DNA of 57,236 nt from an uncultured Verrucomicrobiota bacterium (GCA_964616045.1 CAZTTU010000004.1:1-57236); one strand, 5' to 3'. Shown: positions 24,628 through 48,231, counted from the first letter of the stretch. Numbers and translations are program-made. Notes: generated by a model not told the origin, from the sequence alone.

Positions 24628-25560
24628 ATGAAAATCCTAATTACTGGCGGCGCAGGCTACCTCGGCTCCATCATGACTCCCTATCTTCTCGGCAAAGGCC
24701 ACGAGGTGACAGTCCTCGACAATTTTCTTTTCCGCCAAAACAGCCTGGCTGACTGTTGCCAATACGACACTTTTGGTATTGTGCGTGGCGACTGTCGTGA
24801 TGCAGATAACATCAAGCCGCTTTTGAAACAGGCAGATGTCATTATTCCGCTCGCTGCACTCGTTGGGGCACCATTGTGTAATGATGACAAACTCGCCGCC
24901 GAAAGCGTGAATCACGGCGCAGTGCAACTGCTCTGCGACCTTGCCAGCACCGATCAACGGATCATCATGCCCATCACCAACAGTGGTTACGGCGTGGGTG
25001 AAGAAGGTAAATTTTGCACCGAGGAAACACCGCTACGTCCCATTACTCTATACGGCCGCACCAAAGTAGCGGCGGAAGAATCGGTGCTTGCGCGCGACAA
25101 CAGCATCAGCTTCCGCCTCGCCACTGTCTTTGGCATGGCTCCACGCATGCGATTGGACTTGTTGGTGAACGATTTTGTATACCGCGCCGTAAATGATCGG
25201 GCTCTTCTGATTTTTGAAGGACATTTTAAACGCAACTACATTCACGTGCGCGACATTGCCCGCGTATTCGAACATGCCATCGACAACTTTGACGCCATGA
25301 AGGGAAATCCATACAACGCCGGTCTTGAGGAAGCCAACCTCTCCAAGCTCGAGTTATGTGCAAAGATCAAGAATCACTTGCCGAATTTTGTCTATGTGGA
25401 AGCCGAAGTGGGTGAAGACCCCGACAAACGGGATTACATTGTTTCCAATCAACGGCTGCTTGAATCAGGTTTTAATACCCAATGGGATCTTGACCGAGGC
25501 ATTCGTGAATTGATCAAGGGGTACACAATCATCCGTAACACGATTTATTCAAACGCATGA
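24628..25560 (+). CDS. NAD-dependent epimerase/dehydratase (extended SDR) acting on a nucleotide sugar
   Basis: MKILITGGAGYLGS Rossmann motif and YGRTK catalytic Y...K. 310 aa. Its stop overlaps the next start (ATGA at 25557-25560). Confidence 0.8.
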   Translation: MKILITGGAGYLGSIMTPYLLGKGHEVTVLDNFLFRQNSLADCCQYDTFGIVRGDCRDADNIKPLLKQADVIIPLAALVGAPLCNDDKLAAESVNHGAVQLLCDLASTDQRIIMPITNSGYGVGEEGKFCTEETPLRPITLYGRTKVAAEESVLARDNSISFRLATVFGMAPRMRLDLLVNDFVYRAVNDRALLIFEGHFKRNYIHVRDIARVFEHAIDNFDAMKGNPYNAGLEEANLSKLELCAKIKNHLPNFVYVEAEVGEDPDKRDYIVSNQRLLESGFNTQWDLDRGIRELIKGYTIIRNTIYSNA

Positions 25561-26288
25561 TGCCCGTCCCACGCGACATCACGGCGTTGATTCTGGCCGG
25601 TGGTTTCGGCACGCGAGTGAAGGATTTACTCGGTGACCTTCCCAAGCCCATGGCACCAGTTAAGGGTCGGCCGTTTGTGGAGTGGATTGTCCGCTGGTTA
25701 AAGGCACAGGACGTACGTGAGGTGATCATCTCCACCGGCTATCGCGCGGAAGTGGTGGAGAATCACTTTGAATCGACGCCCGTTTCAGAAATGAATGTGT
25801 GCTGCATCGCGGAACCGGAGCCGTTGGGCACCGGCGGAGGGCTTGCCTATGCCGCGGCCAAATGTGACACGACGCCGACGGCTTGGCTGGTGTTGAACGG
25901 AGATTCGATCATCTTTGCCAATGTGATGGCGATCACTGAATCGCTCGGGCAAGCCGATGGCGTAATGGTTACCCGCACGGTGCCAGACACTTCGCGTTAC
26001 GGCAGTGTGTGTGCTGATGAATCCGGCCGCATCACGGCCTTCAAGGAGAAACACCCCGGCAGCGGCGAAATAAATGCCGGTGTCTACCTGCTGCGACCCG
26101 AGGTGCTCGCGAATTTTCCGGAAGCTCGACCACTTAGCTTGGAACAGGATATATTTCCAAGTTTGCTGGGTCAACCGGGAGGCGTGAAGGCGCATCGGAT
26201 TGAAACCGCTTTTCTCGACATCGGCACCCCAGAAACTTTGCCCAAAGCAGAGGCGTTTATACGGGAAAATCAGGCTGAATTCGCCTGA
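25557..26288 (+). CDS. hddC: sugar-1-phosphate nucleotidyltransferase, HddC-like (D-glycero-alpha-D-manno-heptose-1-P guanylyltransferase-like)
   Basis: ALILAGGFGTRVKDLLGDLPKPMAPVKGRPFVEWIV NTP-transferase signature. 243 aa. Paired with an HddA-like kinase. Confidence 0.6.
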   Translation: MMPVPRDITALILAGGFGTRVKDLLGDLPKPMAPVKGRPFVEWIVRWLKAQDVREVIISTGYRAEVVENHFESTPVSEMNVCCIAEPEPLGTGGGLAYAAAKCDTTPTAWLVLNGDSIIFANVMAITESLGQADGVMVTRTVPDTSRYGSVCADESGRITAFKEKHPGSGEINAGVYLLRPEVLANFPEARPLSLEQDIFPSLLGQPGGVKAHRIETAFLDIGTPETLPKAEAFIRENQAEFA

Positions 26289-26362
26289 TATTTCACCTAT
26301 TTTAGCCATCAAAAAGGCCTTTATAGGCCGTTTATCCCTAAAAAAAGCCTTTTACCATCAAG

Positions 26363-26378
26363 TGGCACGCCATGTGCT
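26363..26378 (+). promoter_or_regulatory. sigma54-type promoter candidate inside the sugar operon (upstream of the GHMP kinase)
   Basis: TGGCAC-GCCAT-GTGCT lies 69 nt upstream of the ATG at 26447, in a 158-nt intergenic gap. It is 17/18 identical to the candidate upstream of fliO (55322-55339, - strand). Confidence 0.5.
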
Positions 26379-26446
26379 GCTCCCACGACGGGCAGGTTGT
26401 ATTTTCCTGCCTAATTTAGGTCCAAAAACGACGAAACACGCAGTTT

Positions 26447-27538
26447 ATGATTATCACACGTACACCGTTTCGCGTCTCCATGTTTGGAGGCGGTACAGAC
26501 TATCCAGGGTGGTATCGGGAACACGGCGGAGCCGTATTATCCACGACCATCGACAAGTACTGCTACATTACAGCGCGACACCTGCCGCCATTTTTTGAAC
26601 ACCGCTTTCGCGTGGTGTATTCGCAAATCGAGAGTGCCAACACCATAGAAGAAATAGAGCATCCCTCGGTGCGCGCCACGCTGAATTATATGAACCTCAA
26701 TCGCGGGATTGAGATTCATCACGACGGCGACCTGCCTGCCCGCAGCGGTATGGGCAGCAGTTCGTCCTTCACAGTCGGTTTGTTGAACGCCCTGCACGCG
26801 TTGAAGGGCCATATGGCCACTAAGGAACAGTTGGCCAATGAAAGTATTCTGGTTGAGCAGGACATTCTCAAGGAAACGGTCGGCTCACAGGACCAAGTAA
26901 ATGCTGCCTACGGTGGTTTTAACCATATTACATTTCATCAATCCGGTGAAATCTCCGTGCGTCCCGTGATCATTCCTCCGGATCGATTGGAAGAACTCAC
27001 TTCCCACTTGATGCTCTTTTACACAGGCATTAAGCGCACCGCCGACAAGGTGGCCGGCTGCTATGTGCCCTCGCTCGAGGCAAAGCGCCGCCAGTTGCGC
27101 ATCCTGCGTGACATGGTGGAGGAGGCACTCTCCATTCTTTGTGGCCATGGGCCGATCAAAGAGTACGGAGAATTGCTGCACGAAGGATGGCTCGCCAAGC
27201 AGGCCATCAGCGACAAGATTTCCAATGCCGCCATCGCCGAGCTTTATGACGCTGCTAGAAGTGCCGGCGCCATCGGCGGCAAGATCACCGGCGCCGGCGG
27301 TGGTGGATTCATGCTTCTCTTTGTGCCACCACAGCATCAACCCGAAGTGCGCGAGAAACTCAATACGCTTCTCCACGTGCCGTTCAACTTTGAGAAGGCT
27401 GGCAGTCAGGTCATTTTTTATGACCGAGACCAGGATTACTCCGCAGCCGAAGCTGACAACAAATCCCGTAATCTCGCTGAGTTTCGTGAGCTGGACGATG
27501 TGGAAGCGACTGCCAGAGCCGTTGCCAACTTTGTTTAA
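26447..27538 (+). CDS. hddA: GHMP-family sugar kinase, HddA-like (D-glycero-D-manno-heptose-7-P kinase-like)
   Basis: MIITRTPFRVSMFGGGTDYPGWY...LPARSGMGSSSSF (GHMP motif II)...TGAGGGGF (motif III). 363 aa. Confidence 0.65.
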   Translation: MIITRTPFRVSMFGGGTDYPGWYREHGGAVLSTTIDKYCYITARHLPPFFEHRFRVVYSQIESANTIEEIEHPSVRATLNYMNLNRGIEIHHDGDLPARSGMGSSSSFTVGLLNALHALKGHMATKEQLANESILVEQDILKETVGSQDQVNAAYGGFNHITFHQSGEISVRPVIIPPDRLEELTSHLMLFYTGIKRTADKVAGCYVPSLEAKRRQLRILRDMVEEALSILCGHGPIKEYGELLHEGWLAKQAISDKISNAAIAELYDAARSAGAIGGKITGAGGGGFMLLFVPPQHQPEVREKLNTLLHVPFNFEKAGSQVIFYDRDQDYSAAEADNKSRNLAEFRELDDVEATARAVANFV

Positions 27539-27541
27539 ACT

Positions 27542-28213
27542 ATGAGACCCCCATTAATTTGTGAACCCACAGTAGCCGACTCCGCAAAACCAATGGCGAA
27601 CAACTTGCCTCATTGGACCCCGGAAAGGCTGATGGCATTTGAAGAGGATATCGCAGAGGAATTTAACGCCTCCAAAATTAAGGCCCCAGTACATCTCTAT
27701 CACGGCAATGAAAGTAAAATAATCGATGTCTTTAAAGAAGTGCAAGCCGGGGACTGGGTGCTGTGTTCTTGGCGTAGTCATTACCAATGTCTGCTAAAGG
27801 GCGTACCCGCCGAGGACGTAAAGGCAGAGATTATGGATGGCCGCTCCATCACACTTAACTTCCCAAAGTACCGTGTGCTGAGCTCAGCGATTGTGACCGG
27901 GGTACTACCCATTGCCGTTGGCCTCGGCCTTGGTATTCAGCGCGATGGCGGCAGCGACCGGGTATGGTGTTTCCTTGGAGACATGACCTCGGAAACCGGC
28001 TCCGCGCACGAGTGCATCAAATATGTGCGCAACCACCAGCTTCCGGTGCATTTTGTAATCGAGGACAACGGTAAAAGTGTATGCACCGACACGCGAGAAA
28101 CGTGGGGCACCGACACGCTCACTTACGAGAACGTGGATGATCCGTATATCACCTACTACCAATACGAAACCAAATATCCGCACGCTGGCGCTGGTCAGCG
28201 CGTTCAATTCTAA
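27542..28213 (+). CDS. short TPP-dependent E1 alpha-like subunit
   Basis: WRSHYQCLLKG (YR.H-like) and GDMTSETGSAHECIKYVRNHQLPVHFVIEDNGKSV (GDG...E..N.A....LPV.F..ENN TPP-binding motif). Only 223 aa. Confidence 0.65.
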   Translation: MRPPLICEPTVADSAKPMANNLPHWTPERLMAFEEDIAEEFNASKIKAPVHLYHGNESKIIDVFKEVQAGDWVLCSWRSHYQCLLKGVPAEDVKAEIMDGRSITLNFPKYRVLSSAIVTGVLPIAVGLGLGIQRDGGSDRVWCFLGDMTSETGSAHECIKYVRNHQLPVHFVIEDNGKSVCTDTRETWGTDTLTYENVDDPYITYYQYETKYPHAGAGQRVQF

Positions 28214-28225
28214 AGGCATGGTTGC

Positions 28226-28771
28226 ATGAAATTGCTGAAATATTTTGATGAGCTAAAGCGCTCGATGGAATACCTGGCCGAGGATCCGAACGCGGTGTTT
28301 CTCGGCCAAGCTGTCGCCTGCCCGGGCACGGCCATGAGCAATACGCTTAAGGAAATTTCCAATGACCGCAAAGTGGAATTGCCCGTGGATGAGGATATGC
28401 AAATGGGCATGACCAACGGCCTCGCCCTGCATGGCAAACTTCCGGTGAGCATTTTCCCGCGTTGGAACTTCCTGCTACTGGCAACCAATCAGCTGGTGAA
28501 TCACCTCGACAAGTTTAGTGACATGTCTGGTGGCGGATATCAACCCAAGGCCATCATCCGTACCAGCATAGGTTCGGAGCGACCGCTGCACCCTGGACAT
28601 CAGCACATTGGCGATTACACCGAGGCGTATCGTCGCATGTTGCACAGCGTCGAGGTCATACGATTGGAGGAACCAGAGGAAGTTTACCCCGCCTATAAAA
28701 AAGCTCACACCCGCAACGACAACAAGAGCACCATTCTAGTGGAATACGGTGATTATTATAATGAAAAATAG
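28226..28771 (+). CDS. short E1 beta/transketolase pyrimidine-binding-like subunit
   Basis: AVFLGQAVACPGTAMSNTLKEI...ELPVDEDMQMGMTNGLALHGKLPVSIFPRWNFLLLATNQLVNHLDK parallels the N-terminal half of E1 beta. 181 aa, with no C-terminal transketolase domain. Confidence 0.6.
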   Translation: MKLLKYFDELKRSMEYLAEDPNAVFLGQAVACPGTAMSNTLKEISNDRKVELPVDEDMQMGMTNGLALHGKLPVSIFPRWNFLLLATNQLVNHLDKFSDMSGGGYQPKAIIRTSIGSERPLHPGHQHIGDYTEAYRRMLHSVEVIRLEEPEEVYPAYKKAHTRNDNKSTILVEYGDYYNEK

Positions 28772-29966
28772 CGCTCACACCATAGATCCGCAGACTGCCA
28801 TCGGCCCGTGGCCGTTAATGCGGAATAACATCACCCGTGAAGATCTTGATTGCCTAGTGGAATTCCTACAACAGGACGATCCCATTCTCACACAGTCGGC
28901 AAATGTGCGTGAACTCGAGTGTGAATGGAGCCATTGGTTAGGGGTAAAACACAGTGTGTTTGTACATTCCGGGTCAGCCGCCAACCTTGTGACCATGGCA
29001 GCACTTCGCCAACTCAAGGGAGGTGGCGAAGTGATTGTACCCACTCTCACGTGGGTGAGCGACATCGCCTCCGTGTTACACTCTGGCATGAAGCCAGTAT
29101 TTGTGGACATCAACCCGCGCACGCTCGGCATGGACATCAGTCAAGTGCTGGATAAAGTGAACGACAACACCAAGGCTGTCTTCCTTACACACGTGCTCGG
29201 TTACAATGGACTCGACCAACGGTTGCTCGATGAATTGAAGCAACTCAACGTTCCTCTAATCGAGGATTGCTGCGAGGCGCACGGTGCGACATATGTCGAC
29301 CAACGTGTGGGCAGCATGGGTTGGGCTTCGAATTTTTCTTTTTATTACGCGCACCATCTCAGCACCGTTGAGGGAGGCATGGTTTGCACGAATGATGATG
29401 AGCTTTATGAGGCCATCCGCATTTACCGTTCGCACGGAATGGTAAGGGAAGCTGCTGAACAGGAAACGAAAGACCGTTATCAGTCCAAGCATCCGGATTT
29501 GAATCCCGATTTCATCTTCGCCTATCCCGCGTACAACGTGCGTGGCACGGAACTCAACGCAGTGATTGGCCGCAATCAACTCAAGCGCTTGGACGACAAC
29601 AACGCCATTCGGACACGCAACTTAAAGCTCTTTTTGGGCGGACTGGATTCGGCGAAGTACCAAACCGATTTTGCCGTGGAGGGCAGTAGCAATTACGCCT
29701 TTACGCTCATTCTGCGCAGCCCGGATGACACATTACGCGATCGGGTGGAGCACACTTTGCGCGGGTTAAATGTGGAATTTCGCCGTGGAACGGCCGGAGG
29801 TGGCAATCAGCTTCGACAGCCTTATGCCCGAGAGCGGTTTGGGGATGAATATCAGAACTATCCCTTCACCAACCACGTACACTTTTACGGTTGGTATATC
29901 GGGAATTATCCCGACCTCGAACCCGAGCGCATCATCGCACTGACTGAACTGCTAAACACAATATAA
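28749..29966 (+). CDS. DegT/DnrJ/EryC1-family enzyme with Lys->His active site: ColD/E1-type PMP-dependent nucleotide-sugar 3-dehydratase
   Basis: SGSAANLVTMAAL and NFSFYYAHHLSTVEGGMVCTND. The Schiff-base Lys position of aminotransferases (SF...K....GEGG) is His (codons 29352-29357). There is no C-terminal Cys cluster. It overlaps the previous gene by 23 nt. Confidence 0.7.
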   Translation: MIIIMKNSAHTIDPQTAIGPWPLMRNNITREDLDCLVEFLQQDDPILTQSANVRELECEWSHWLGVKHSVFVHSGSAANLVTMAALRQLKGGGEVIVPTLTWVSDIASVLHSGMKPVFVDINPRTLGMDISQVLDKVNDNTKAVFLTHVLGYNGLDQRLLDELKQLNVPLIEDCCEAHGATYVDQRVGSMGWASNFSFYYAHHLSTVEGGMVCTNDDELYEAIRIYRSHGMVREAAEQETKDRYQSKHPDLNPDFIFAYPAYNVRGTELNAVIGRNQLKRLDDNNAIRTRNLKLFLGGLDSAKYQTDFAVEGSSNYAFTLILRSPDDTLRDRVEHTLRGLNVEFRRGTAGGGNQLRQPYARERFGDEYQNYPFTNHVHFYGWYIGNYPDLEPERIIALTELLNTI

Positions 29967-29968
29967 CG

Positions 29969-31528
29969 ATGATTAAACCTTTGAACAAGCAACTCGACGT
30001 GCTGTTTGTCTCGCCTGATTCCTCGACGAAGGCGTATCAGGAATTGGCCAAGAAATACGCAGCCATCGAAACGCCCACGTGGGCGCTTCTACTCGCACAG
30101 GCTTGCCGGAGTAATGGATTTGAATCAGCCATTCTGGATACCGGGGCAGAAAGATTAACTTTAGAACAATCCGTACGACGAATTGATGAAGCCAACCCTC
30201 GATTGGTGTGCCTAACGGTGTATGGTCAGAACCCGAATTCCGGCACCACTAATATGATTGGTGCCATCGCTTTATCCAGAGCACTCAAGGAATCTTATCC
30301 CGAATATAAAATCGCTATCGTAGGGTCCCATGTTAGCGCCCTGCCCCATGAAGTACTGGGGGAGGATTCCATTGATTATGTGCTACTCAATGAGGGCGTG
30401 TATGCGATTCAGAATCTCTTGCGAAGCAATCTGGATGACGAAATAAAAAAAGTAAACGGCATTGGCCACAAATTAAACGGTCAGCCATGGCTAAATCCGC
30501 CTGAGAATGTAGTGCCTCAGGAGCGCATGGATATAGATCTACCCGGGTACGCCTGGGATTTGCTGCCATATGATAAACGACCGTTGGACCTATATCGGGC
30601 GCACTTCTGGCATGCGGAATTCGACCATGCCAAGCGGACACCGTTTGCAGCCATTTACACGTCACTGGGTTGTCGATTTGCCTGCAATTTTTGTATGATC
30701 AATATCGTCAACCGTGATGATAATGAGGATCACATCAACTCCTCACATTCACGTAAAATGCGGTTCTGGTCGCCAAACTTTATTACCAAGGAATTTGAGA
30801 AACTCTCCGATCTCGGCGTTGAAACATTACGCATTTCAGACGAGATGTTCTTCTTGGATAAACGCTATTTTAACCCGTTGTTGAACAATCTCATTGATCG
30901 GAATCTGCCCCTACGCATGTGGGCGTACTCGCGCATCGATACCGTACGGCCAAAGTATCTCGATCTCTTTAAGCGGGCAGGGATCAACTGGCTTGCACTA
31001 GGAGTAGAAGCAGGCAACCAGAAAGTGCGCCGTGAAGTGTCAAAGGGCTCATTCAAGGATATCAATATTCGTGAAGTCACACGCGAAATCCGTGAAGCCG
31101 ACCTGAATATCATTTCGAATTACATCTATGGGTTTCCAGATGACACCCATGAAACTATGCAACAGACACTAGACCTAGCGTTGGAACTCAATACCGAGAT
31201 GGCCAACATGTACCCGTGCCAAGCACTCCCGGGTAGTCCACTGCATCATGAGGCCAGACAAAAAGGATGGTCACTACCCGATAGCTATGAAGGTTATGCC
31301 TTTTTATCCTACGAAAGTCAGCCGCTGCCCACCAAACATCTAAGCGCTGCCGAAGTAATGCGCTTCCGTGACGAAGCGTGGCAGACTTATTTCACCAATC
31401 CCAATTACCTTGACCTTGTTGAAAATAATTTTGGACGAGCCCAGAGATTAAACGTGGAAGATATGAGCAGTGTTCCAATTTCCCGAAAACTGCTGGAGAA
31501 AAAAAACCCGGAGACCTGTTTAACTTGA
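29969..31528 (+). CDS. B12-binding-domain radical SAM enzyme (class B-like)
   Basis: An N-terminal B12-binding-like region (LDVLFVSPDSS...LTVYGQNPNSG), then YTSLGCRFACNFCMI (canonical CX3CX2C at ~30670-30695). 519 aa. Confidence 0.75.
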   Translation: MIKPLNKQLDVLFVSPDSSTKAYQELAKKYAAIETPTWALLLAQACRSNGFESAILDTGAERLTLEQSVRRIDEANPRLVCLTVYGQNPNSGTTNMIGAIALSRALKESYPEYKIAIVGSHVSALPHEVLGEDSIDYVLLNEGVYAIQNLLRSNLDDEIKKVNGIGHKLNGQPWLNPPENVVPQERMDIDLPGYAWDLLPYDKRPLDLYRAHFWHAEFDHAKRTPFAAIYTSLGCRFACNFCMINIVNRDDNEDHINSSHSRKMRFWSPNFITKEFEKLSDLGVETLRISDEMFFLDKRYFNPLLNNLIDRNLPLRMWAYSRIDTVRPKYLDLFKRAGINWLALGVEAGNQKVRREVSKGSFKDINIREVTREIREADLNIISNYIYGFPDDTHETMQQTLDLALELNTEMANMYPCQALPGSPLHHEARQKGWSLPDSYEGYAFLSYESQPLPTKHLSAAEVMRFRDEAWQTYFTNPNYLDLVENNFGRAQRLNVEDMSSVPISRKLLEKKNPETCLT

Positions 31529-35317: not shown

Positions 35318-36019
35318 ATGAGCCGCAAACTCGTCAACGGTGAATTGAAATTCGATACGGTTGCCCGGCGTCTCGATGACTGGGTGGATCATCATCCTTG
35401 GGCCCGTGGCGGCTGGGTGCCCGCGGATCAGGAATGGCATGAGTTTATGGCCAGCCATCGCTATCGCCCGAAGGACAATGACGGCGTGACGCCAATTCAG
35501 CAGGTGCGGTCAGAGATTATTGGCTTGGTCGAGGTGTTGCTGGATTCGGTCCCGCGCAGGACCGCGGTCGAGATCGGCATGGGAACTTGCGGTGGATCAC
35601 ATTTTCTTTGGTCGTTGATGTTCGATCGGGTCATCACCATTGACGCCGATCGCAAACCCATCGAGCGGTTCATCGACGAGCATTCGCCGCACGACGATCA
35701 AAGCACATTCATTTTTGGCAAATCCTATGATTCGGAAATTGTCAATGAAGCCGGGCGCATTATCCGGAGCTGCAATTTTTTGCTGATTGATGGTGACCAC
35801 ACGCGCGACGCTGTGGAGGCAGATTGGCGGATGTATTCCCACTTGGTTGAACCTGGGGGCATCATCGCCTTCCATGACACCCTGATGGAAGTGCCCGGCG
35901 AACTGGAAGTGGCCAGTTTCGTAAATGACCTCGAAACAGGCAATTTAACCGGCACACCTCTCCCCATCCAGCACATCCGATATTCCAAATTTGTCGGCAT
36001 TTCTTATTATCAAGTTTGA
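35318..36019 (+). CDS. class I SAM-dependent methyltransferase (CmcI/cephalosporin-hydroxylase-like family)
   Basis: AVEIGMGTCGGSHFLWS (SAM motif I-like) ... VITIDAD ... LLIDGDHTRDAVEADWRMYSHLVEPGGIIAFHD. 233 aa. Confidence 0.65.
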   Translation: MSRKLVNGELKFDTVARRLDDWVDHHPWARGGWVPADQEWHEFMASHRYRPKDNDGVTPIQQVRSEIIGLVEVLLDSVPRRTAVEIGMGTCGGSHFLWSLMFDRVITIDADRKPIERFIDEHSPHDDQSTFIFGKSYDSEIVNEAGRIIRSCNFLLIDGDHTRDAVEADWRMYSHLVEPGGIIAFHDTLMEVPGELEVASFVNDLETGNLTGTPLPIQHIRYSKFVGISYYQV

Positions 36020-36144: not shown

Positions 36145-36157
36145 TTGTTTGGAGGAC

Positions 36158-42100: not shown

Positions 42101-43480
42101 GCCGATGAAATTCTGCCCACTGATGAAATCGAGCACCTTCGTGCGGATTTGACCCAAGCCAATTATCTCGGCTTTCGACTCCCACTAGTAAATAAGATTC
42201 TAGCCAAAAATGACGAGGAGGAAACTGCCGACGGCATTTGCTACGTGCCGAGGCTGTTTCGTAATGCCCCTGGCCTGCATTTCGTGGGCCGCGTGCATGA
42301 GCAGATATATTGCTCCGTGCTAGTGCGTCAGGCCGATTGGCAAATGGACTCAGGCATTGGCACCACCTGCCTGCATCACTTTGGCTACACGCCGGAAGTG
42401 AAGAAGGAACGTAACAAGGTGAAGCGCAACCTGAAGCTCCTAGAGATGGCCGTTGAAGAACAGCCAGCAGAACCTGCACTCCTGATGAATTACGCGCTGG
42501 ACTTGTTCAATGATGGCCAGTTTGAGGCGGCGCTCGAAAAAGACCGCGAGGCTTTCACCCTGCTTTCCAAACACAAGCGGGGAAACGTCCTGCCGGAGGT
42601 GCGGGAACGACTAGTCAGCGTGTACTGCTACCATTTGCTGCAAGCAGAGCTTTACGATGAGCTAATGAAGGTCGCGGCCAGCCCGATGGCTGTTGACTGC
42701 GGCCCGACCTCATCAATTCATTACGTGCACGGTTTGGCATTGTTGAAGCTGGATCGATTTGAGGAGGCGATTGAGCCTTTCCGTGACTGTATTGCAAAAC
42801 GGGATGAACCCACTTTTACTGCACGCTTCAAGGGCGTGGAAGGGCACGGACCACATCATTTGCTGGCCGATTGTTTGGCAAAATCCGGCCAATCCGAGAC
42901 GGCCATCGCAGAGTACAAACTCGCTCTGAACATTGCCCCGAAAGCCACTAGCGTTCGCCATGGTTACGCCCATTACTTGACAGAACTAGGGCAACCGGAA
43001 AAGGCGGTGAAACTCCTGTTCGACGCTATTGAAAACGAGTCCATTGACGCACGCCTCTGGTCGCTCGGCTGTCATATTGTCAATGGTCACTTGAACGATT
43101 CCGATGTTGCCCTTCACTGGACCGATTGCGCCATTGACGAATTCCCGGAACACCCCGAGATACGTAAGCAACGTGGCATCGCGCTGCTTACTGTGGGAAA
43201 TTTCAAGGACGCACTGACATTTTTCGAAAAGGCCCCGCAACATCCGCTGAATGAGGGCGCTCGAATCCTGTGTCGAATTGCCACCGGACAAACAGCACAG
43301 CTCAGTGATCCTGACAAAGAACAACTTATCAGCACCGCTTTTATGGAATGGTACCGCCGCCTGCTAGAGCGAGGACAGGGAGAATCAGCAAAACGATTGG
43401 CTAAAAATATTGACACCCTAGAAGCCGTACTGCCCACGGCAGTCACGATGTTGCGCGAAGCGGTGTCGGCCGAAAATTAA
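36158..43480 (+). CDS. ~2,440-aa multidomain protein: two GT-B (GT1/GT4, CgeB-like) domains + long TPR array + GT2 domain + C-terminal TPR array
   Basis: GT-B C-terminal motifs are SRGVEALAAGCAVLT (~37150) and GRVVESMAAGRPIISWEP...ENARAKVLRYHT (~39310-39540). About 700 aa of TPR-like repeats (39650-41400) include e.g. AEALQALAFCQFKTGDIERSQDTYKQLLAFNPKD. GT2: LSVCFITKDEERFLDDALQSV...VVVDTGSTDHTV...FSAARNFALEHARGDWVLVLDADE (41860-42480). More TPR follows to the end. The start is uncertain (TTG 36140, ATG 36158 or GTG 36164). Confidence 0.8.
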   Translation: MDVQNPIPDREFEEYAPPAIALGKPSEWFTSGNFCGSARSPDVEGWQSSAALGLIGNAPLAIAGLEKTDSPEARFYLGAALWIEGNETEATDVLARVNLPEARRLLALIQKPRINVLAQTVWEDAAFEDEKFHVHRTGIKRTRLNEETVLEADNRVLDEPFLSIRKGLDFKPDFYFAHMIEWQYLPYDLTELSCPTFGATSDLDLHIQNNAPWLSAFDEVITVGPEEWAKARALRPGPTCIFPKLFGINLDHQLKLDDRKRDVDVFISGTMISPYHPDKAQLLQQLLSDGSLNIRYMNGFLPPWSYVSEMMRSKVSFTYVRHPGSMPSRGVEALAAGCAVLTQTGSALGLYVAENEGVFTYEPNQLAGRIRELAGNWDTIAPQARRGAEIMRREFTGSRCISQFLRFLTVRTAITGKNRPRVAPPVPHQKRVITKRGWLYPGTVNYCLLNHTMEESRQREAKQPQSHHSIDAARELDLYLACDLPQVSKKIHGYQNMTQDAKRAGDGAAVKKLADEMRANAKRIYEHGIRKHPNSLVLRFNSIRHDLHLGSPGQVAEALDQIQVILDQSTLHGTIDPQEDIMPWDYFGSLFNYRGYLDTLTVGLTSGTVDTEKLAQMILASLAHYLGQYTAQVAPLERAVRWDPEFGHYHFSLARALLLRNEPGDDRRAGTLLEGLFEKGILIEPTFRLLAKLREYRGVEVAKWEDYEQRFRRLQRMIFASGQAYEQFEDDTLILPPDVKNLPLLADPFVDKNLPMAGTESSTHLASPAGRRDTPKKVLLISFECGNWENAKAWSYNGFYALEEALGAQGVRHLTLPTIAGMPSSHRGSWLRQAELFTKGEKFDQAWIWVTHNDYEPEFLNWFEKIAPVRVGLIMESLEHTAEESKRFPNLAVRRKKVLDHLRHCTHALTFDEKDAETLPIDLPIHALWCPPVVGWRDVCAQIDLPAPGPACFQGTLYNPERQAFFELAELRKLLHQPELPEATSELPSDFDKTQALSIKQLMRYDVAALEWLDEYLTQLRRIRRQLNDLWQKGLRQSYLQVNLPSIFKSYAGRVVESMAAGRPIISWEPPRERTRALFTPGKEILWFNRDKPEQLAEQIQWLQKNPHKAAAIAENARAKVLRYHTAEIRVRQILDWIEHGLEPDFGENINSSTETEQTELDMNTNTLPPETLEEALDQAEVCNNHEDHEGAVQALENALELGDRHPVILRALATQQFLQSRYDKARVLFKEFTTVCPDDATGHVQYGLAAFHDKDEEMCISALQQALVLEPDHLEALKLLADLDVRAEHYAEARRKYDQVAEQGGITAEALQALAFCQFKTGDIERSQDTYKQLLAFNPKDELATHNLSVVEATLRDNPPASTKMTSNLETESVNEFLEQADFFQQAGNSEAALAELQRAVELEPKNPRLIEALGSALFQQERFEEARSHFRHFIELQPRNAMAYTRLAMTSYATDRYDEFECALGLAMEIDPESPEMLHFMGKVNLDQQRHYDAGRIFGKLVELEPENVQNLLALGMCLHQGGQTEAAQDTYKRTLQLDPENQIAQTNLIAIEQNALPAETKTDIHESTTQSQSLDTSLEKAQAALEQGESQRAIALLENVLAQHPSEVALLRALGNLYFSEGQLKESMEYFHRISDLLPGEIDAQLQAATTALLAENYETFEIYMERSLELEPENPHGLKLLATANFKAQKYKEAADLYCQALTGLTEDIEIVLALGVCFHNLEDKDTAESCFKRALEIDPYNPVAAENLKSLANTTAPPETTIQSNSHISATVLNDICSHVQNKATDESANLPTAALVGNLDHAQELLSQGLHIESWNETLKAIEQRPFHPEAYLHLAEVALDCDDTLQAAKCLVTISSLTPSWEIPKQALDTINKQPHTQSTEINWPTLPQPAASPRLSVCFITKDEERFLDDALQSVRNIAHQIVVVDTGSTDHTVAIAEKHGAEVHHFEWCDDFSAARNFALEHARGDWVLVLDADEILPTDEIEHLRADLTQANYLGFRLPLVNKILAKNDEEETADGICYVPRLFRNAPGLHFVGRVHEQIYCSVLVRQADWQMDSGIGTTCLHHFGYTPEVKKERNKVKRNLKLLEMAVEEQPAEPALLMNYALDLFNDGQFEAALEKDREAFTLLSKHKRGNVLPEVRERLVSVYCYHLLQAELYDELMKVAASPMAVDCGPTSSIHYVHGLALLKLDRFEEAIEPFRDCIAKRDEPTFTARFKGVEGHGPHHLLADCLAKSGQSETAIAEYKLALNIAPKATSVRHGYAHYLTELGQPEKAVKLLFDAIENESIDARLWSLGCHIVNGHLNDSDVALHWTDCAIDEFPEHPEIRKQRGIALLTVGNFKDALTFFEKAPQHPLNEGARILCRIATGQTAQLSDPDKEQLISTAFMEWYRRLLERGQGESAKRLAKNIDTLEAVLPTAVTMLREAVSAEN

Positions 43481-43491
43481 GCACGTATTTA

Positions 43492-44532
43492 TTATTCGGC
43501 TTTGCCTTGAAACTGGCTCTCGCCTGAACCGGTCGCGGTGATACCGGTCGCGTTTTGCACTTCAAAGGTCCAGGAACGCTTCTCGGAATTAAGGAGCCGT
43601 TCACGAAGCTCGATGACCAGTCCCGGCCGTATACAGTGCCAGGTAATCAACTGCTTGGCGGCATCCCAGTAGCCCGTGAAATGGTCGACCGGACCGTCTT
43701 GAAAAAAATAAGCCCACCTATACACTCCGTCCACTGTATCCCACGTCTTCACCCACATAAAATATTCCGTACTGCCCTCAGGATCTACAACACCTTCGTT
43801 GATAAGAAATTTCCCGCCGCGCGACCAACGCATACGACTCAATAATTCCAGATTCTTGGTGCTTCCTCCCTCAGAAACCGTTTGTGTCTCTTTCCAAATT
43901 CCGCCTCGACCCAGTCTTTCGAGTTCTTTGCCCAATGGCATAGGATCTACCGTCGGTCGGGTATGCGGACCAGTGCGCTTGGCCTCGGATCGACCGTCCA
44001 CACTAACTCTTCCTTTTTCAGTAATTTGGAAGTGGAGTTGCTTTGCTCTCGGATCAGTGAAAATTTCAGTGATTCGAAAATCCAGTCCCTCCGGGGCACT
44101 GGGAAGATAAATCGGTTTCCATTCCATGAACGCTTGTTTCGGATACCATCGACCCGCAAAACCGCGCACCAAGCCATCATTCTGGAACCAGGTACTTCGA
44201 AAACGATTGGTGCTGGCGCCACTGTCGAAATGTTTTACCACCAACTCATGTGCCTTTTGTTCGCCAACATTAATCTCGGTCTCCAACAAAAGACAATGCC
44301 CGTTGAGAGCCCAGCTAGCGTACATCGTCGCGGAGTTGTGATTTGTCTGGCCATCAGGCCCGATCACCGTGTTTTGCACCTGCCATAACCCCGGTTCTTC
44401 CAGAACCCTCAACTCGGCCCTAGCTGACTTTGTTGCATCCAAGGGTGACTGGGCCGGCATCTCGGCAACTGGAGATTTGCCACATCCCCATGCCATTACC
44501 AGCATCGTGATCAATAGCCAACGCATCCCCAA
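43492..44532 (-). CDS. secreted/lipoprotein-like hypothetical protein with an internal two-domain duplication
   Basis: Signal peptide MGMRWLLITMLVMAWGCGKS. There are two similar ~140-aa halves: (E)PGLWQVQNTV...TWFQNDGLVRGFAGRWYPK and GGIWKETQTV...AYFFQDGPVDHFTGYWDAA. Confidence 0.6.
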   Translation of the reverse strand: MGMRWLLITMLVMAWGCGKSPVAEMPAQSPLDATKSARAELRVLEEPGLWQVQNTVIGPDGQTNHNSATMYASWALNGHCLLLETEINVGEQKAHELVVKHFDSGASTNRFRSTWFQNDGLVRGFAGRWYPKQAFMEWKPIYLPSAPEGLDFRITEIFTDPRAKQLHFQITEKGRVSVDGRSEAKRTGPHTRPTVDPMPLGKELERLGRGGIWKETQTVSEGGSTKNLELLSRMRWSRGGKFLINEGVVDPEGSTEYFMWVKTWDTVDGVYRWAYFFQDGPVDHFTGYWDAAKQLITWHCIRPGLVIELRERLLNSEKRSWTFEVQNATGITATGSGESQFQGKAE

Positions 44533-44626: not shown

Positions 44627-46579
44627 ATGCAAGTTCCACGCTTATTCAAGACTGGGCGCCCTCCCCGTGCATTTTTTTGGTGGCTTCCGGTTGCCATGCT
44701 TACAGCCGTTCTCTGGATGGGCTGCAATAAAGCTGCCGACGAGAAAAAGTCTGCAGCTGGAGAATCTACAACCCCAAGCACTGCCCAGCCCATCGTCGTA
44801 GACAATAAAGAAGCGACGGGAGATGAAAAACTCGCTGGCCTCGTAGCCAATGTGGAAGAGACGTCCACTCCTCGTGCGCCTGAGCAGCCCGTGGACGTTC
44901 CTGTCGTGGCAACTCCTGTTGCGGCGGTAACTCCGGCGGCCAAGACAACGCCAGCAGGACCCCTGCCCGCAAACGCCAAATACCTGCCTTCAAACGCCAC
45001 GGCAATTGTCTCATTTAACTTGGGTCAATTACTGAAAAAAGGCGGCTATGATGATTTTATTAAATCGCCCATGGTGGCAGCAATTACAGGAGAGCTGGAA
45101 AACGAGTTGGGAGAAGAACTGGCAACTTTGCTGCAAAAGATCATCAAGGACCCAGCCGCCAGCGGCATCGACACCGCTCAGCCAATCCATATTTTCCTGG
45201 ATGTTTCTGCCCCGGAAAAAGATGACCCTTTTGCCGAACCAATGATGAATGGCGGTTTGGTAGCCTCGGTAAAAAATGCCGATGCAGTTGAGACCACTTT
45301 GAATAAGTTATTCGCATTGGGAGGTGATAATGTGAAGCGCGGCAAGGGCGAAGGGTACAAGAGTATGATGCCTCCGGATGGTGAAGGCGTTGCCGCGGCA
45401 ATGGGTTATTCGAAGGACGCCTTCATCTTTGTTGGCAGCAGTAATCCTGAGGATGTCGCCAAGATTCCCGGCCAATTGGCAGATCGTTTTGCCGGCAAAA
45501 AATCGTTGGCAAAAAACTCCAAGGCTGCGGTGTTGCTGCAGGAGAAATACGATATTGCTGCCTGGATGGACTATACAAAAATCATGAACATGGCCTTCGA
45601 TGCGGCCGGCGGGCTCCCGGAAGGCGACCCTCTAGCCGCATTGACCAAAGACATGGAGTACGCCGTTGCCGTGCGTTTTGAGGCAGGTAGCGTAGATGTG
45701 GACATGATCTCCTATACCGATAGCGAGCTCTACAAGGGCTTCAGCAAAGGCGGAATGGATAAAGGCTTGGTAAACCTCGTTCCCAACAACGCGATCCTAG
45801 CCGGCGCGGAGGCGTTCAACATGAAGCCGATCCGAGATATGATGATCAAACAGGTGCTGCCGTTGTTAAAAAATGGAGAAAATGCCGAGATGACTCAGGA
45901 GATTGAAAACATGCTTGGAATGACGATTGAAGATGTACTCACCATTCCAAAGGGCGATTTCCTCGCTGTGTTTGATGGCCTGCAAGAATCCGATGAGCTT
46001 GGAATGATGCCACAGTTCCTGCTCGGCCTTACCATCGATAACAAGGCAAATTTCAACAAGCTCTTAAGCAATCCGGCCATACAGGGCTTTCTGCCCAGCC
46101 TGAATGCATTCGGAATGCAGATCGCGCAGAACGAGAATGCCTTCTTTATTTGTAGCCAAAACCACGGACCGGCTGTCAACGGAGGCAAGGCGCAAAAACC
46201 GGCCAACAAGCGACACCAGAAATTGCTGAGTGGTGATATGGGAGGTTATGTACAATTCGATGCGGTGGGAGCATTAATCCAAAAACTCGGGGCAGGCGTT
46301 GCTGAAGCCCAGATGATAGGACAATTACTGGGTACATTAGATGAGGCAACCTTTCAGGGCTCCTTTGGAGACGGAGAGCAGTCAGTTCTCGCCCGACTAA
46401 CCTTCAAGGACAAAAAAGCTAACGGCCTAAAGCAACTCATCGATCTATCCACACAAATCGCTTCCATGACTGGAGAATTGGACGCATCGTTTCCTCCCGG
46501 CGAAGCACCTGAACCTGATGAAATTGAGGTAGAACCAGTAGATCCCAAGCTGGATCAGGCCCTGGATCAGGACAAATAA
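44627..46579 (+). CDS. large lipoprotein-like hypothetical protein
   Basis: Signal and lipobox-like FFWWLPVAMLTAVLWMGCNK, then a Pro/Ala/Thr/Val-rich linker, a ~500-aa domain with no motif I recognise, and an acidic tail (EAPEPDEIEVEPVDPKLDQALDQDK). Confidence 0.6.
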   Translation: MQVPRLFKTGRPPRAFFWWLPVAMLTAVLWMGCNKAADEKKSAAGESTTPSTAQPIVVDNKEATGDEKLAGLVANVEETSTPRAPEQPVDVPVVATPVAAVTPAAKTTPAGPLPANAKYLPSNATAIVSFNLGQLLKKGGYDDFIKSPMVAAITGELENELGEELATLLQKIIKDPAASGIDTAQPIHIFLDVSAPEKDDPFAEPMMNGGLVASVKNADAVETTLNKLFALGGDNVKRGKGEGYKSMMPPDGEGVAAAMGYSKDAFIFVGSSNPEDVAKIPGQLADRFAGKKSLAKNSKAAVLLQEKYDIAAWMDYTKIMNMAFDAAGGLPEGDPLAALTKDMEYAVAVRFEAGSVDVDMISYTDSELYKGFSKGGMDKGLVNLVPNNAILAGAEAFNMKPIRDMMIKQVLPLLKNGENAEMTQEIENMLGMTIEDVLTIPKGDFLAVFDGLQESDELGMMPQFLLGLTIDNKANFNKLLSNPAIQGFLPSLNAFGMQIAQNENAFFICSQNHGPAVNGGKAQKPANKRHQKLLSGDMGGYVQFDAVGALIQKLGAGVAEAQMIGQLLGTLDEATFQGSFGDGEQSVLARLTFKDKKANGLKQLIDLSTQIASMTGELDASFPPGEAPEPDEIEVEPVDPKLDQALDQDK

Positions 46580-46634
46580 TAGGCCTCAAAGGCTATTCTC
46601 ACATAAATGGCGTTGAATTAGCGGGTTTATGCCT

Positions 46635-46667
46635 GCCATTTTAATGGCCGTTTTTTTTCTTTTTTTG
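46635..46667 (+). terminator. weak intrinsic terminator candidate after the lipoprotein gene
   Basis: GCCATT-tt-AATGGC short stem followed by CGTTTTTTTTCTTTTTTT. Confidence 0.35.
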
Positions 46668-46797
46668 TCAGTTTTGGCTAAAGCCACCTGCCGAAACTGC
46701 CGACTAATACTCGGAACATACTAGCCAGAAATGGCAGTGGCGATACCGCGCCCAAGGATGGATCAAAAACGGTGGAAACACCGGAGAAAGCGGTAAA

Positions 46798-48231
46798 ATG
46801 ATGAGAATCAACACGGATGTTGAATCCAGCCACTCAGCTCAGGACTTGTCCAAGGCTGAAACGCTGCAGAAGTTTGGACTTTTCTTCCAGAAAATGGGGG
46901 AACTGGACTTGGCGGTTTCCGTGTATCAGCGCCTCCTTGACCTAGGCGCCGATTCCCCCGATTTGCGGTTCAACTTTGGCGCTGCACGCCTCAAACAAAT
47001 ACGTCCCACAGAAGCACTCGATCACTTCAAAGCTGCTGCCCGCCGCCAGCCCGACGAACCTGGTATCCACTTGGGCATGGCCAATTCCCACCAGCTATTG
47101 GGTGACATTGCCTCTGCTGAGGCATGTTTGGAAAAGGAACTTCTGGTGAGTCCAGAATCCGCGCAAGCCTCCGTGAATCTGGGCTGGATTCTTGAGGAAC
47201 AAAACCGCGTGCCCGAAGCCCTTATGCAATATCGCAAGGCACTTTACCACAATCCCAATCATCCTGATTTGCGCTGGAACCATGGCCTTGCCTGCTTGAT
47301 GCTGGGTGACCATGCCCGTGGCTGGCGCGACTACGAATTCCGTTGGAAGGCACGCAAAAAACTAAAACCCACCTATGACAAACCTGAATGGAAAGGCGAA
47401 CCGCTCAAGAACCGCTCTCTGCTCCTGCACACAGAACAGGGCTTTGGCGACACAATCATGTTCCTACGTTTTGCTCAGCAAATGGGTCAGGCCAACAACC
47501 GCATCTCCCTGCAGTGCCAACCACAACTGAAACGCCTCTTTGGCGCCCAACCTGAATTGGAACATGTAGTGGCAAACGGTGAAAAACTGCCAAGCTATGA
47601 CCTGCAGGCTCCACTTATGAGCCTGCCCCATTTACTCAAGCTCTCACGCGAAAACGATTTTCATTCTCATGCTTATCTTTCGACTAATGACCTTTCAATC
47701 GCGCCCATTCCGGAAGCGCAACCGGGCCACAAAAAAGTAGCCGTCACTTGGGCCAGTGCGCCGCACAGTGAGGATAAAGATAAAAAAACAGTGCCCTATT
47801 CGAAATTTTGCACACTTTTCGACATCCCTAACTGCACGTTCTATTCGGTACAGATCAACGCGGATGCCACAGCAGTAGCCGACATGAACCGACGCTCAAA
47901 CGTGCACGACTTGCGGGATTCCATCAGCGACTTTGCCAACACCGCCGGAATCATCAACCAAACCGACCTGGTGATCACCGTGGATACCGCCACCGCCCAT
48001 CTTGCTGGAGCTCTTGGTAAACCCGTTTGGACACTGCTTCCCTACGCCGCCGACTGGCGGTGGCGCCTGCATCGCACAGACACACCTTGGTACCCTTCCA
48101 TGCGCCTCTTTCGCCAAAATAAATCCGGACATTGGGATGACTTGATGGAAGAAATAAACCACTGTCTCTTCAACCACTGTGCGCAATTTTCCACCTCGCG
48201 TCTCGCAGGCGGCGTGGTGGCTTCCTGCTAA
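46798..48231 (+). CDS. TPR-repeat protein with a C-terminal glycosyltransferase family 9 (heptosyltransferase-like) domain
   Basis: N-terminal TPRs (e.g. FGLFFQKMGELDLAVSVYQRLLDLGADSPD). C-terminal GFGDTIMFLRFAQQM...DLVITVDTATAHLAGALGKPVWTLLPYAADWRWRLHRTDTPWYPSMRLFRQ is typical of GT9-like TPR proteins. Confidence 0.7.
   Translation: MMRINTDVESSHSAQDLSKAETLQKFGLFFQKMGELDLAVSVYQRLLDLGADSPDLRFNFGAARLKQIRPTEALDHFKAAARRQPDEPGIHLGMANSHQLLGDIASAEACLEKELLVSPESAQASVNLGWILEEQNRVPEALMQYRKALYHNPNHPDLRWNHGLACLMLGDHARGWRDYEFRWKARKKLKPTYDKPEWKGEPLKNRSLLLHTEQGFGDTIMFLRFAQQMGQANNRISLQCQPQLKRLFGAQPELEHVVANGEKLPSYDLQAPLMSLPHLLKLSRENDFHSHAYLSTNDLSIAPIPEAQPGHKKVAVTWASAPHSEDKDKKTVPYSKFCTLFDIPNCTFYSVQINADATAVADMNRRSNVHDLRDSISDFANTAGIINQTDLVITVDTATAHLAGALGKPVWTLLPYAADWRWRLHRTDTPWYPSMRLFRQNKSGHWDDLMEEINHCLFNHCAQFSTSRLAGGVVASC

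Follow-up and report, generated by a model that had tools for sequence, protein, structure and literature searches.

Which sugar is made by the genes that lie between flagellin and flhF in an uncultured marine bacterium, and what does that sugar decorate? The window considered here is a stretch of 57,236 nucleotides from an uncultured Verrucomicrobiota bacterium (GCA_964616045.1 CAZTTU010000004.1:1-57236), and its region from about 23.4 to 48.2 kb is read as a glycosylation island in the flagellar locus of a marine member of the Limisphaerales, organised in three layers. Our overall reading, to which we assign a probability of roughly 55%, is that the island builds a 3-deoxy, C4-branched sugar derived from guanosine diphosphate (GDP)-heptose, which is transferred to flagellin by glycosyltransferases carrying tetratricopeptide repeats (TPRs). 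Gene content, homologies, conservation of the sugar cassette and synteny are observed directly; the catalysis of each step, the source of the branch, what the radical S-adenosylmethionine (SAM) enzymes do and which molecule accepts the glycan are inferred from homology and gene context. The sugar genes are 80-96% identical at the protein level to those of the closest genome match, a marine Limisphaerales (Verrucomicrobiota) metagenome-assembled genome (MAG). An original prediction, drawn from the sequence alone, had placed an island of this kind at 24628-48231, and every gene coordinate and domain that it listed was recovered by profile search, including flagellin at 22118-23242 and a convergent flhF at 48236. 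Its left border needs correction: the genes from 24628 onwards are real, but an upstream gene for L-2-hydroxyglutarate oxidase (LhgO, ~23412-24605) was overlooked and belongs to the island. Nor is the block co-oriented throughout, as had been stated, since hyp346 (43492-44532) lies on the minus strand.

In the proposed mechanism, the first layer would be a conserved, mobile nucleotide-sugar cassette that takes GDP-heptose as its start. A short-chain dehydrogenase/reductase (SDR) of the Cj1427 type would oxidise C4 with alpha-ketoglutarate as the hydride sink, the adjacent LhgO would regenerate the alpha-ketoglutarate, and a ColD-type enzyme dependent on pyridoxamine phosphate (PMP) would take off the C3 hydroxyl to give GDP-3-deoxy-4-keto-heptose. 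A heterodimer of miniature E1 alpha and beta subunits, dependent on thiamine diphosphate (ThDP), would then put an acyl unit on the C4 ketone, by default two carbons from pyruvate. The second layer, variable between lineages, would tailor this product with two B12-domain radical SAM enzymes, a fused SDR (for keto reduction) and a CmcI-like O-methyltransferase. The third would consist of cytoplasmic TPR-glycosyltransferases, namely a TPR protein with a GT9-like domain (TPR-GT9) and a 2,446-residue protein with three glycosyltransferase (GT) domains (the big GT), whose TPR arrays would bind flagellin so that the glycan is built on Ser/Thr before export.

The sugar cassette extends well beyond this genome. 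A search with the miniature E1 alpha, of which there are ~7,000 homologous clusters in public data, matched at least 243 GTDB species, and 80 loci were fetched; related loci were viewed with 10 kb on either side, and open reading frames (ORFs) in those of high GC content were picked with GC3 filtering. The core comprises the HddA-like kinase, the HddC-like nucleotidyltransferase, the Cj1427-like SDR, the ColD-type enzyme and miniature E1 alpha and beta, with or without a B12-radical SAM enzyme and LhgO, and its usual order is SDR, nucleotidyltransferase, GHMP kinase, E1 alpha, E1 beta, ColD-type enzyme and radical SAM enzyme, or a rotation of this. Co-occurrence was counted at the 39 loci flanked left and right by 8 kb or more, where E1 alpha is paired with E1 beta in all 39, with the ColD-type enzyme in 38, the kinase in 37, the Cj1427-type SDR in 36, the nucleotidyltransferase in 32, a B12/radical SAM enzyme in 29 and LhgO in 13. 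At least eight phyla carry the cassette, the carriers being Verrucomicrobiota, Planctomycetota (including an anammox MAG), Nitrospirota, Acidobacteriota, Gemmatimonadota and Bacteroidota, besides Saccharibacteria, Burkholderiales, Pseudohongiella and a Pelagibacteraceae single-cell genome. Cultured strains among them are Massilia sp. LXY-6 and 2TAF26 and Herbaspirillum lusitanum RL21-008-BIB-A. Across carriers the SDR and both E1 subunits are 52-91% identical to those of the window and the other core genes less so; between phyla, identity is 52-72% for these three and mostly 53-72% for the ColD-type enzyme, and it falls to ~30-40% in some loci for the kinase, nucleotidyltransferase and radical SAM enzyme. 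Because the core lies mostly away from flagellin in these phyla, the original view of the whole 24 kb as one flagellum-specific unit is abandoned, and we regard the nucleotide-sugar cassette as conserved, horizontally mobile, modular and not specific to the flagellum. Full-text literature searches returned no description of this gene combination.

A separate observation concerns genome-reduced lineages. Four Saccharibacteria loci (L028, L037, L059 and L063) and the Pelagibacteraceae single-cell genome (L070) encode E1 alpha and beta 62-70% identical to those of the window, accompanied by ColD-type and SDR homologues in all but L037. Cassette genes are unexpected in such organisms and may reflect horizontal transfer or contamination of the bins.

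What, then, ties the sugar to flagellin in the lineage studied here? The island sits inside a genuine flagellar locus: its right border is the convergent flhF (48236-49366, minus strand, found by profile search), which heads a minus-strand run of flhF, flhA, flhB, fliR, fliQ, fliP, fliO, fliN, fliM and a fliL-like gene. Flagellin, the presumed glycan acceptor, is a protein of 374 residues (fliC, 22118-23242, on the plus strand, as are fliW, csrA, the 6,539-residue ORF, the stem-loop and sigma54-like motifs placed below and every island gene except hyp346) with Flagellin_N and Flagellin_C domains and a central domain (residues 141-290) that is 23% Ser/Thr. In relatives the order fliW-csrA-fliC-LhgO-SDR is kept in six loci (L009, L012, L015, L016, L087 and L088), a seventh (L014) starting at fliC, and the right half of the island, from the big GT through TPR-GT9 and flhF on to fliL, is kept in L089. 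An independent case is Nibricoccus (Opitutales), which has four fliC genes, a TPR-GT41 protein and the cassette; after these comes a protein with two Glyco_trans_1_2 domains that shares 35% identity with the first 600 residues of the big GT. The placement of TPR-glycosyltransferases beside flagellin is thus borne out, with synteny kept in relatives; that the block travels with flagellin is true of the Limisphaerales relatives and of Nibricoccus, but not of most other phyla.

The two glycosyltransferases themselves have the architecture of enzymes that act on proteins. TPR-GT9 (46798-48231; Pfam GT9, 24.6 bits against a cutoff of 22) lies between a DUF4836 gene and flhF both here and in L089, and carries TPRs at residues ~15-180 followed by a C-terminal GT-B domain. 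Its AlphaFold2 model (mean predicted local distance difference test score, pLDDT, 90.8) has two Rossmann-like halves and returns OGT, SPINDLY and XcOGT as top Foldseek matches, which makes the protein a candidate flagellin O-glycosyltransferase of FlmG/OGT-like architecture. For FlmG, the TPR domain is known to bind flagellin (PMC7591256). The big GT (36140-43480, probable ATG at 36158) has, as had been proposed, three glycosyltransferase domains with TPR arrays: Glyco_trans_1_2 at residues ~300-411 and ~1043-1142, TPR arrays at ~1185-1760, a GT2 domain with an LDADE motif at ~1905-2010 and further TPRs at the C-terminus. An ortholog occurs in L089, and homologues of its domains lie beside the cassette in Nibricoccus, Massilia and Herbaspirillum. 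Profile searches of the island found no Wzx, Wzy, Wzm or Wzt, and no flippase, polymerase, ABC exporter or initiating transferase.

Promoter-like motifs also connect the island with flagellar genes, at least in their placement. The original prediction of sigma54-type promoters common to the island and the flagellar export genes holds in so far as such motifs stand before flhA, fliO and island genes, but GG-N10-GC motifs are not enriched across the window (14 found against 9.6 +/- 3.1 expected). Their placement in intergenic DNA, unlike their overall number, is significant: five of the 14 fall within the 3.2% of the window that is intergenic, and each of the five faces its downstream gene, these being fliW (21328-21343, just 5' of the gene), the GHMP kinase (TGGCACGCCATGTGCT, a -24/-12 type motif at 26363-26378 within a 158-nucleotide gap), the big GT (TGGCCCAATAGTTGCT, 36129-36144, just 5' of the probable ATG), flhA and fliO. 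At the level of motifs, this supports a possible co-regulation of island and flagellum.

The sugar could be made as proposed and yet be destined for something other than flagellin, whether another protein (the 6,539-residue surface protein encoded upstream, or a type I secretion substrate) or a cell-envelope glycan, with the flagellar site no more than a neutral insertion. We think this improbable, though it is to be taken seriously. In other phyla flagellin is missing within 10 kb of most cassette loci. Downstream of the cassette in Nitrospira and Nitrospirales (L066, L072, L076, L079, L081 and L083) come Wzm and a Wzt whose C-terminus carries a carbohydrate-binding domain, a combination typical of O-antigen export; it fits incorporation of the same sugar, perhaps at the terminal position, in an O-polysaccharide exported by an ABC transporter. 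Massilia combines the cassette, a Glyco_trans_1_2 glycosyltransferase and a TPR-GT9 homologue, again with no flagellin within 10 kb, and in Maridesulfovibrio sp. (L090, 3411-9398) a TPR-GT9 homologue with 39% identity lies in a type I secretion operon, which suggests glycosylation of a type I secretion substrate in that organism. Here, a giant gene for a secreted-type protein lies only 2.4 kb 5' of flagellin. Against such an acceptor stand four observations: the giant gene is not kept beside the island in relatives and flagellin is (L012, L015 and L087), Nibricoccus independently has the cassette between its four flagellin genes and its glycosyltransferase genes, the island lacks lipid-carrier, flippase and polymerase genes, and sigma54-like motifs are common to the island and the flagellar export operons. 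Occurrence of the same block in lipopolysaccharide or capsule loci of non-flagellated strains, which the original prediction had named as evidence against itself, is matched in part by the sugar genes, as in Nitrospira, but not by this locus. Our reading is that the sugar module is common property and that the acceptor is set by the local transferases, and flagellin is in our judgement the probable acceptor in this lineage.

In the Maridesulfovibrio operon, the TPR-GT9 homologue is the last gene, after those for an outer-membrane factor, an ABC protein and an HlyD-type protein. The idea that TPR-GT9 proteins are generally flagellar is ruled out by this homologue.

Turning to the sugar itself, a GDP-heptose origin is strongly supported by the sequence comparisons. 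All of the top four PDB matches of the GHMP kinase (26447-27538, predicted to be of the heptose-7-phosphate kinase type) are heptose kinases (4usk, 4usm, 3k85 and 4n3o), and its best NCBIfam matches are of the HddA type, at 132 bits against an equivalog cutoff of 600. The HddC-like protein, a putative sugar-1-phosphate guanylyltransferase (25557-26288), has Yersinia HddC as its best PDB match (5xhw/6jq8, E 1e-34), ahead of GDP-mannose pyrophosphorylases; its best NCBIfam matches are mannose-1-phosphate guanylyltransferase at 158 bits and HddC at 141 bits (cutoff 300), both below cutoff. Profile searches found neither gmhA nor gmhB in the 57-kb window, as the original prediction had cautioned, and this genome must carry them at another site. 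At nine loci each, in Massilia, Herbaspirillum, Planctomycetaceae, Saccharibacteria, Pseudohongiella and Nitrospirales, genes for a GmhA-like SIS protein and for the phosphatase GmhB do lie inside the homologous cassette; GmhB there reaches 181 bits (cutoff 178) and the GmhA-like protein, for which phosphoheptose isomerase is the top match, 187 bits (cutoff 276). The GDP-heptose route already suggested for this locus is much strengthened by these in-cassette genes, by HddA and HddC as nearest solved relatives and by the 6vo6 homologue considered below.

Removal of the C3 hydroxyl would fall to the DegT-family protein at 28749-29966, a predicted PMP-dependent sugar 3-dehydratase. It matches ColD (2gms) with E 4.8e-48, closer than the CDP-type E1 enzyme (E 9e-32), and aligns an AHH stretch with the SHH of ColD that contains His188, a position marked by the H188N and H188K mutant chains. 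His-His thus stands in place of the Schiff-base Lys, in keeping with the Lys-to-His assignment first made for this enzyme, and is invariant in 73/73 cassette-linked homologues aligned at those two columns; the protein nevertheless remains below the RfbH equivalog score (NF011936, 185 bits against a cutoff of 423). Work from the Raushel laboratory has shown that Cj1427 and the HS:5 C3-dehydratase convert GDP-heptose to GDP-3-deoxy-4-keto-heptose in vitro, with a reported m/z of 616.08 for the [M-H]- ion (PMC10680097), and the window encodes both enzyme types of this pair in one cluster.

What follows GDP-3-deoxy-4-keto-heptose is suggested by the E1 pair encoded directly 5' of the ColD-like gene (27542-28771). 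The alpha-like subunit (27542-28213, 223 residues; Pfam E1_dh, 46.7 bits) keeps a G-D-M...E-D-N diphosphate-binding motif in which G146, M148, E174, D175 and N176 are invariant, and the beta-like subunit (28226-28771, 181 residues; Pfam Transket_pyr, 49 bits) consists of the pyrimidine-binding domain only, with no Transketolase_C domain. At this size the pair falls short of the full-length E1 architecture, in which alpha has ~320-370 residues and beta includes Transketolase_C. ThDP enzymes that branch sugars at C4, such as YerE and ErwE, typically take 3-deoxy-4-keto nucleotide sugars as acceptors (PMC9306805), and E1 alpha/beta pairs have been proposed (Plm8/9) or genetically implicated (AviB1/B2 of avilamycin) in adding two carbons from pyruvate at C4 of 4-keto sugars (PMC4802897). 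With this precedent for the two-carbon brancher envisaged at the outset, C4 acyl branching is by analogy the most likely role of the pair, at odds slightly better than even.

That the cassette makes GDP-3-deoxy-4-keto-heptose but does not use the miniature E1 pair to branch it at C4 seems to us unlikely. In that case the pair might supply an acyl group or aldehyde for another step, act like a transketolase on the heptose side chain, or work on another carbon together with the radical SAM enzymes. Compared with every characterised E1 enzyme the pair is cut short, its sequence has almost nothing in common with the solved ones, and the core cassette has no dedicated reductase for a branch ketone, the SDR fusion being present in some lineages only. 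The exchange of the pair in L087, described below, likewise hints at more elaborate 2-oxo-acid chemistry. The GHMP kinase, E1 alpha, E1 beta and ColD-type genes nevertheless form an almost invariant contiguous sub-block, and both the acceptor type and the involvement of such pairs in antibiotic sugar branching have the precedents just cited, so that we continue to favour C4 branching.

The locus in question, of a close relative known as a Verrucomicrobiales MAG (L087, 12953-17862), shares the frame of flagellin, LhgO, SDR, nucleotidyltransferase and GHMP kinase on one side and DegT and radical SAM genes on the other. Between them it replaces the miniature pair with an enolase-superfamily protein, a DJ-1/PfpI protein, an unknown protein, full-length E1 alpha and beta and a HAD hydrolase, a swap that suggests another 2-oxo-acid donor. 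A higher sugar of the erwiniose or caryophyllose type grown from heptose was also considered and is ruled out by the origin of those sugars, which arise from CDP-3,6-dideoxy-4-ketohexose and long 2-oxo acids through YerE-type enzymes (PMC9306805).

The ketone at C4 on which these steps depend would be introduced by the extended SDR at 24628-25560 (310 residues). Over residues 2-307 it is ~60% identical to PDB 6vo6/6vo8 (E 3.3e-106), and each of the solved 4,6-dehydratases scores at most 48 bits in the same search. The entry 6vo6 is presumably Cj1427 of Campylobacter jejuni, an identification with which the depositor name agrees. The ITNSGYG and YGRTK stretches of the SDR align with NTNSGYG and YGIDK of 6vo6, the Tyr-x3-Lys pair is present, and in this alignment the Asp/Glu acid-base pair that typically follows the catalytic Thr/Ser of 4,6-dehydratases is missing; the TNSGYG motif recurs in 44 cassette-linked SDRs. 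A homologue search returned close marine relatives only, with no informative names. Cj1427 is a GDP-heptose C4-dehydrogenase that makes GDP-4-keto-heptose, and its tightly bound NADH is re-oxidised by alpha-ketoglutarate, yielding L-2-hydroxyglutarate (PMC10680097). The SDR is therefore best described as a probable C4-dehydrogenase of the Cj1427 type, which works by a ping-pong cycle, an assignment that depends partly on 6vo6 being Cj1427. If so, the predicted intermediate, GDP-4-keto-heptose, keeps its C6 hydroxyl and is not a 6-deoxy sugar.

The upstream LhgO gene fits this assignment. It reaches 531.7 bits on NCBIfam NF008726 (cutoff 299), that is, equivalog level, and its likely start is a CTG at 23412, six nucleotides after a Shine-Dalgarno-like AAGGAGG, where homology also begins. 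Between fliC and LhgO lies a GC-rich, terminator-like stem-loop read from the sequence (GGGGTCC-AAAAA-GGGACCCC, within 23325-23355), across which the automatic gene calls in relatives stretch LhgO back into fliC. Equivalog-level LhgO is joined to the cassette in Kuenenia, Chitinophagaceae, Opitutaceae, other Verrucomicrobiae and Nitrospira, hence in Planctomycetota, Bacteroidota, Verrucomicrobiota and Nitrospirota. Such a linkage is biochemically sensible only if the SDR yields L-2-hydroxyglutarate, and we therefore propose that SDR and LhgO form a cofactor-recycling pair in which LhgO returns L-2-hydroxyglutarate to alpha-ketoglutarate. The assignment first given to the SDR, a GDP-heptose 4,6-dehydratase on a route through 6-deoxy-4-keto-heptose like that of DmhA or of colitose, draws on its weak likeness to dehydratase models (Pfam GDP_Man_Dehyd, 64.7 bits; NCBIfam dTDP-glucose 4,6-dehydratase, 72 bits against a cutoff of 365) and on ColD having a 6-deoxy-4-keto sugar as its natural substrate, but is very improbable given the full-length match to 6vo6, the active site with TNSGYG and no acid-base pair, an LhgO co-encoded here and in several other phyla that fits only an alpha-ketoglutarate-dependent dehydrogenase, and a C. 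jejuni C3-dehydratase that takes a 6-hydroxy 4-keto-heptose (PMC10680097).

Several observations weigh against the reading of the island as a source of a branched heptose for flagellin, beyond the cassette loci remote from flagellin, the Wzm/Wzt neighbours in Nitrospira and the Massilia and Maridesulfovibrio homologues already set out. The equivalog cutoffs for HddA, HddC and RfbH are all missed, and gmhA and gmhB are absent from the window. The identification of 6vo6 with Cj1427 is presumptive. E1 alpha reaches only 24 bits against any solved E1 alpha, and the pair is far smaller than solved E1 enzymes. Finally, the island is broken by two lipoprotein genes, hyp346 and the DUF4836 gene.

The tailoring layer is where the chemistry is least constrained, and what lies beyond GDP-3-deoxy-4-keto-heptose, including the description as a heavily tailored deoxysugar, is inferred. 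Both radical SAM proteins have B12-binding and radical SAM domains above Pfam cutoffs, and the best matches of the two are HpnJ, BchE, PhpK, AprD4 and TsrM, all far below cutoff. Enzyme 1 (29969-31528) has a CX3CX2C cluster (CRFACNFC) and scores 121 bits for HpnJ, its best NCBIfam match, against 578 and 65 for AprD4 against 500; in the PDB the radical SAM matches are AprD4 (6fd2, 48 bits, the best for enzyme 1) and TsrM (24 bits). The second is a fusion (31573-35256) with a classical SDR at residues ~35-240, an unassigned middle, the B12/radical SAM part at ~570-930, where the cluster is a non-canonical CX4CX2C (CSWSRCKFC), and a last stretch of ~230 residues that is acidic and of low complexity and then carries weak MORN-variant repeats. 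The radical SAM enzymes could act as C-methylases, or they could dehydrate or rearrange the side chain of the heptose by radical chemistry. By analogy, the fused SDR could reduce the branch ketone like YerF or partner a radical dehydratase like AprD3. The CmcI/rhamnosyl O-methyltransferase-like protein (35318-36019; Pfam RMNT_CmcI, 44 bits) would O-methylate the sugar. This layer differs among close relatives: L014 has no radical SAM enzyme 1 and keeps an ortholog of the fusion, and L012 has instead a phosphoenolpyruvate (PEP)-utilising enzyme, a second nucleotidyltransferase, a sulfotransferase and another methyltransferase. A partial homologue covering the middle and radical SAM parts of the fusion follows the Nitrospira cassette in L072.

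Around these genes, the window contains several that are peripheral to the proposed pathway. The gene hyp346 has no family match, and the DUF4836 gene (44627-46579; 119 bits) lies beside it in divergent orientation; both were missing from the original gene list, encode proteins with lipoprotein-like N-termini within an otherwise cytoplasmic island, have no link to sugars and are probably passengers. In L089 (6796-9795), from a relative with ~78% identity, the two genes are kept at the same place. On the left, fliC is preceded by fliW (21370-21810; Pfam FliW, 97 bits) and csrA (21844-22062), the latter recognised from its translation and from CsrA (PF02599) being called in the identical loci L001-L003. 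Directly 5' of fliW-csrA-fliC are a minus-strand Ser/Thr protein kinase gene and one for a small FHA-domain protein (19737-21185), also found in this position in L087, L088, L012 and L015, a hint that phospho-signalling may feed into the flagellin checkpoint of FliW and CsrA. The 6,539-residue ORF (53-19672) takes up the first third of the window, and in the identical locus L001 it bears annotations for Laminin_G_3, PQQ beta-propeller and DUF5122 repeats; its product looks like a giant surface or adhesin-like protein. Base composition was considered as a mark of recent transfer and set aside as uninformative, because GC content falls to 0.46-0.48 between positions 30 and 35 kb of the window but the upstream giant gene is alike.

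How does the island compare with described systems? It appears to be a hybrid of Campylobacter heptose modification, yersiniose-type ThDP branching and FlmG/OGT-style flagellin islands, and a strict member of none, since the HddA, HddC and RfbH thresholds are missed and the E1 pair departs from full-length architecture. One likeness is to the capsular heptose pathway of C. jejuni (HddA, GmhB, HddC, Cj1427 and the HS:5 C3-dehydratase), with which it shares its first four enzyme types and their logical sequence, an SDR with ~60% identity to 6vo6 and a PMP/His dehydratase of the same type. In C. jejuni, cupin epimerases and C4-reductases then produce plain heptoses for the capsule, whereas the island has no epimerases and adds the ThDP E1 pair, B12-radical SAM enzymes, a linked LhgO, TPR glycosyltransferases of the protein-modifying type and a flagellar location.

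With YerE/YerF (yersiniose), ErwE/ErwF (erwiniose), AviB1/B2 and Plm8/Plm9 it has in common the predicted logic of a deoxy-4-keto nucleotide sugar, ThDP carboligation at C4 and ketoreduction, and a split E1 alpha/beta enzyme is at work in AviB and Plm too. Those systems act on CDP- or dTDP-hexoses destined for O-antigens or antibiotics, and the island is predicted to act on GDP-heptose; its E1 subunits, ~60% of normal size, form a highly conserved family of their own, and YerE and ErwE come from another fold family of ThDP enzymes.

The transferases share a bipartite arrangement of TPRs and glycosyltransferase domain with FlmG (TPR plus GT-B), GmaR/FgtA (GT2 plus TPR) and OGT/SPINDLY, and, like the FlmG and FgtA types, they are encoded beside flagellin. 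Inspection of the island glycosyltransferase by eye showed neither a signal peptide nor a transmembrane segment, as would fit a cytoplasmic enzyme. Its GT-B domain is GT9-like, that is heptosyltransferase-like, and not a known FlmG or GT41 domain, so that the likeness to FlmG is one of architecture; the known FlmG donors are CMP-pseudaminic and CMP-legionaminic acid, and the island donor is predicted to be a GDP-sugar. For the 2,446-residue partner with three glycosyltransferase domains we know of no described counterpart.

Classical flagellin islands, such as those of Pseudomonas, Campylobacter, Aeromonas and Caulobacter, likewise hold a variable block of sugar and glycosyltransferase genes between flagellin and flagellar genes, with a gene content that varies among close relatives, as it does here between L012, L014, L087 and the window. 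Unlike them, the island has no nonulosonic-acid, viosamine or rhamnose genes and no Maf, and its sugar module is common to non-flagellar loci in many phyla. The cassette is more interesting than its flagellar address.

A broader claim can be put forward tentatively, and in its full form we consider it more doubtful than the reading of the island itself. It holds that the cassette, composed of HddA, HddC, a Cj1427-like SDR with LhgO recycling, a dehydratase of the ColD type and miniature ThDP carboligases that are heterodimeric and of a new family, in some cases joined by a B12-radical SAM enzyme, makes a previously unknown class of GDP-activated, C4-branched 3-deoxy-heptoses of at least nine carbons, which many environmental phyla may display on their surface as a 'signature' sugar. 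On marine Verrucomicrobiota flagellin this sugar would stand in for the nonulosonic acids of other flagellins and would be installed by a three-GT assembly-line enzyme and a GT9-type protein heptosyltransferase.

If the island does what is proposed, it would open a new branch in the heptose chemistry of bacteria and define a new family of split, very small ThDP enzymes that act on nucleotide sugars, and it would provide a flagellin glycan made from heptose instead of nonulosonic acids or 6-deoxyhexoses. The linked LhgO suggests how cells handle the use of alpha-ketoglutarate by Cj1427-type dehydrogenases. The chemistry is testable in the cultured carriers Massilia and Herbaspirillum, and its reach would go beyond one genome, to Nitrospira, anammox Planctomycetes, Saccharibacteria and abundant marine Verrucomicrobia.

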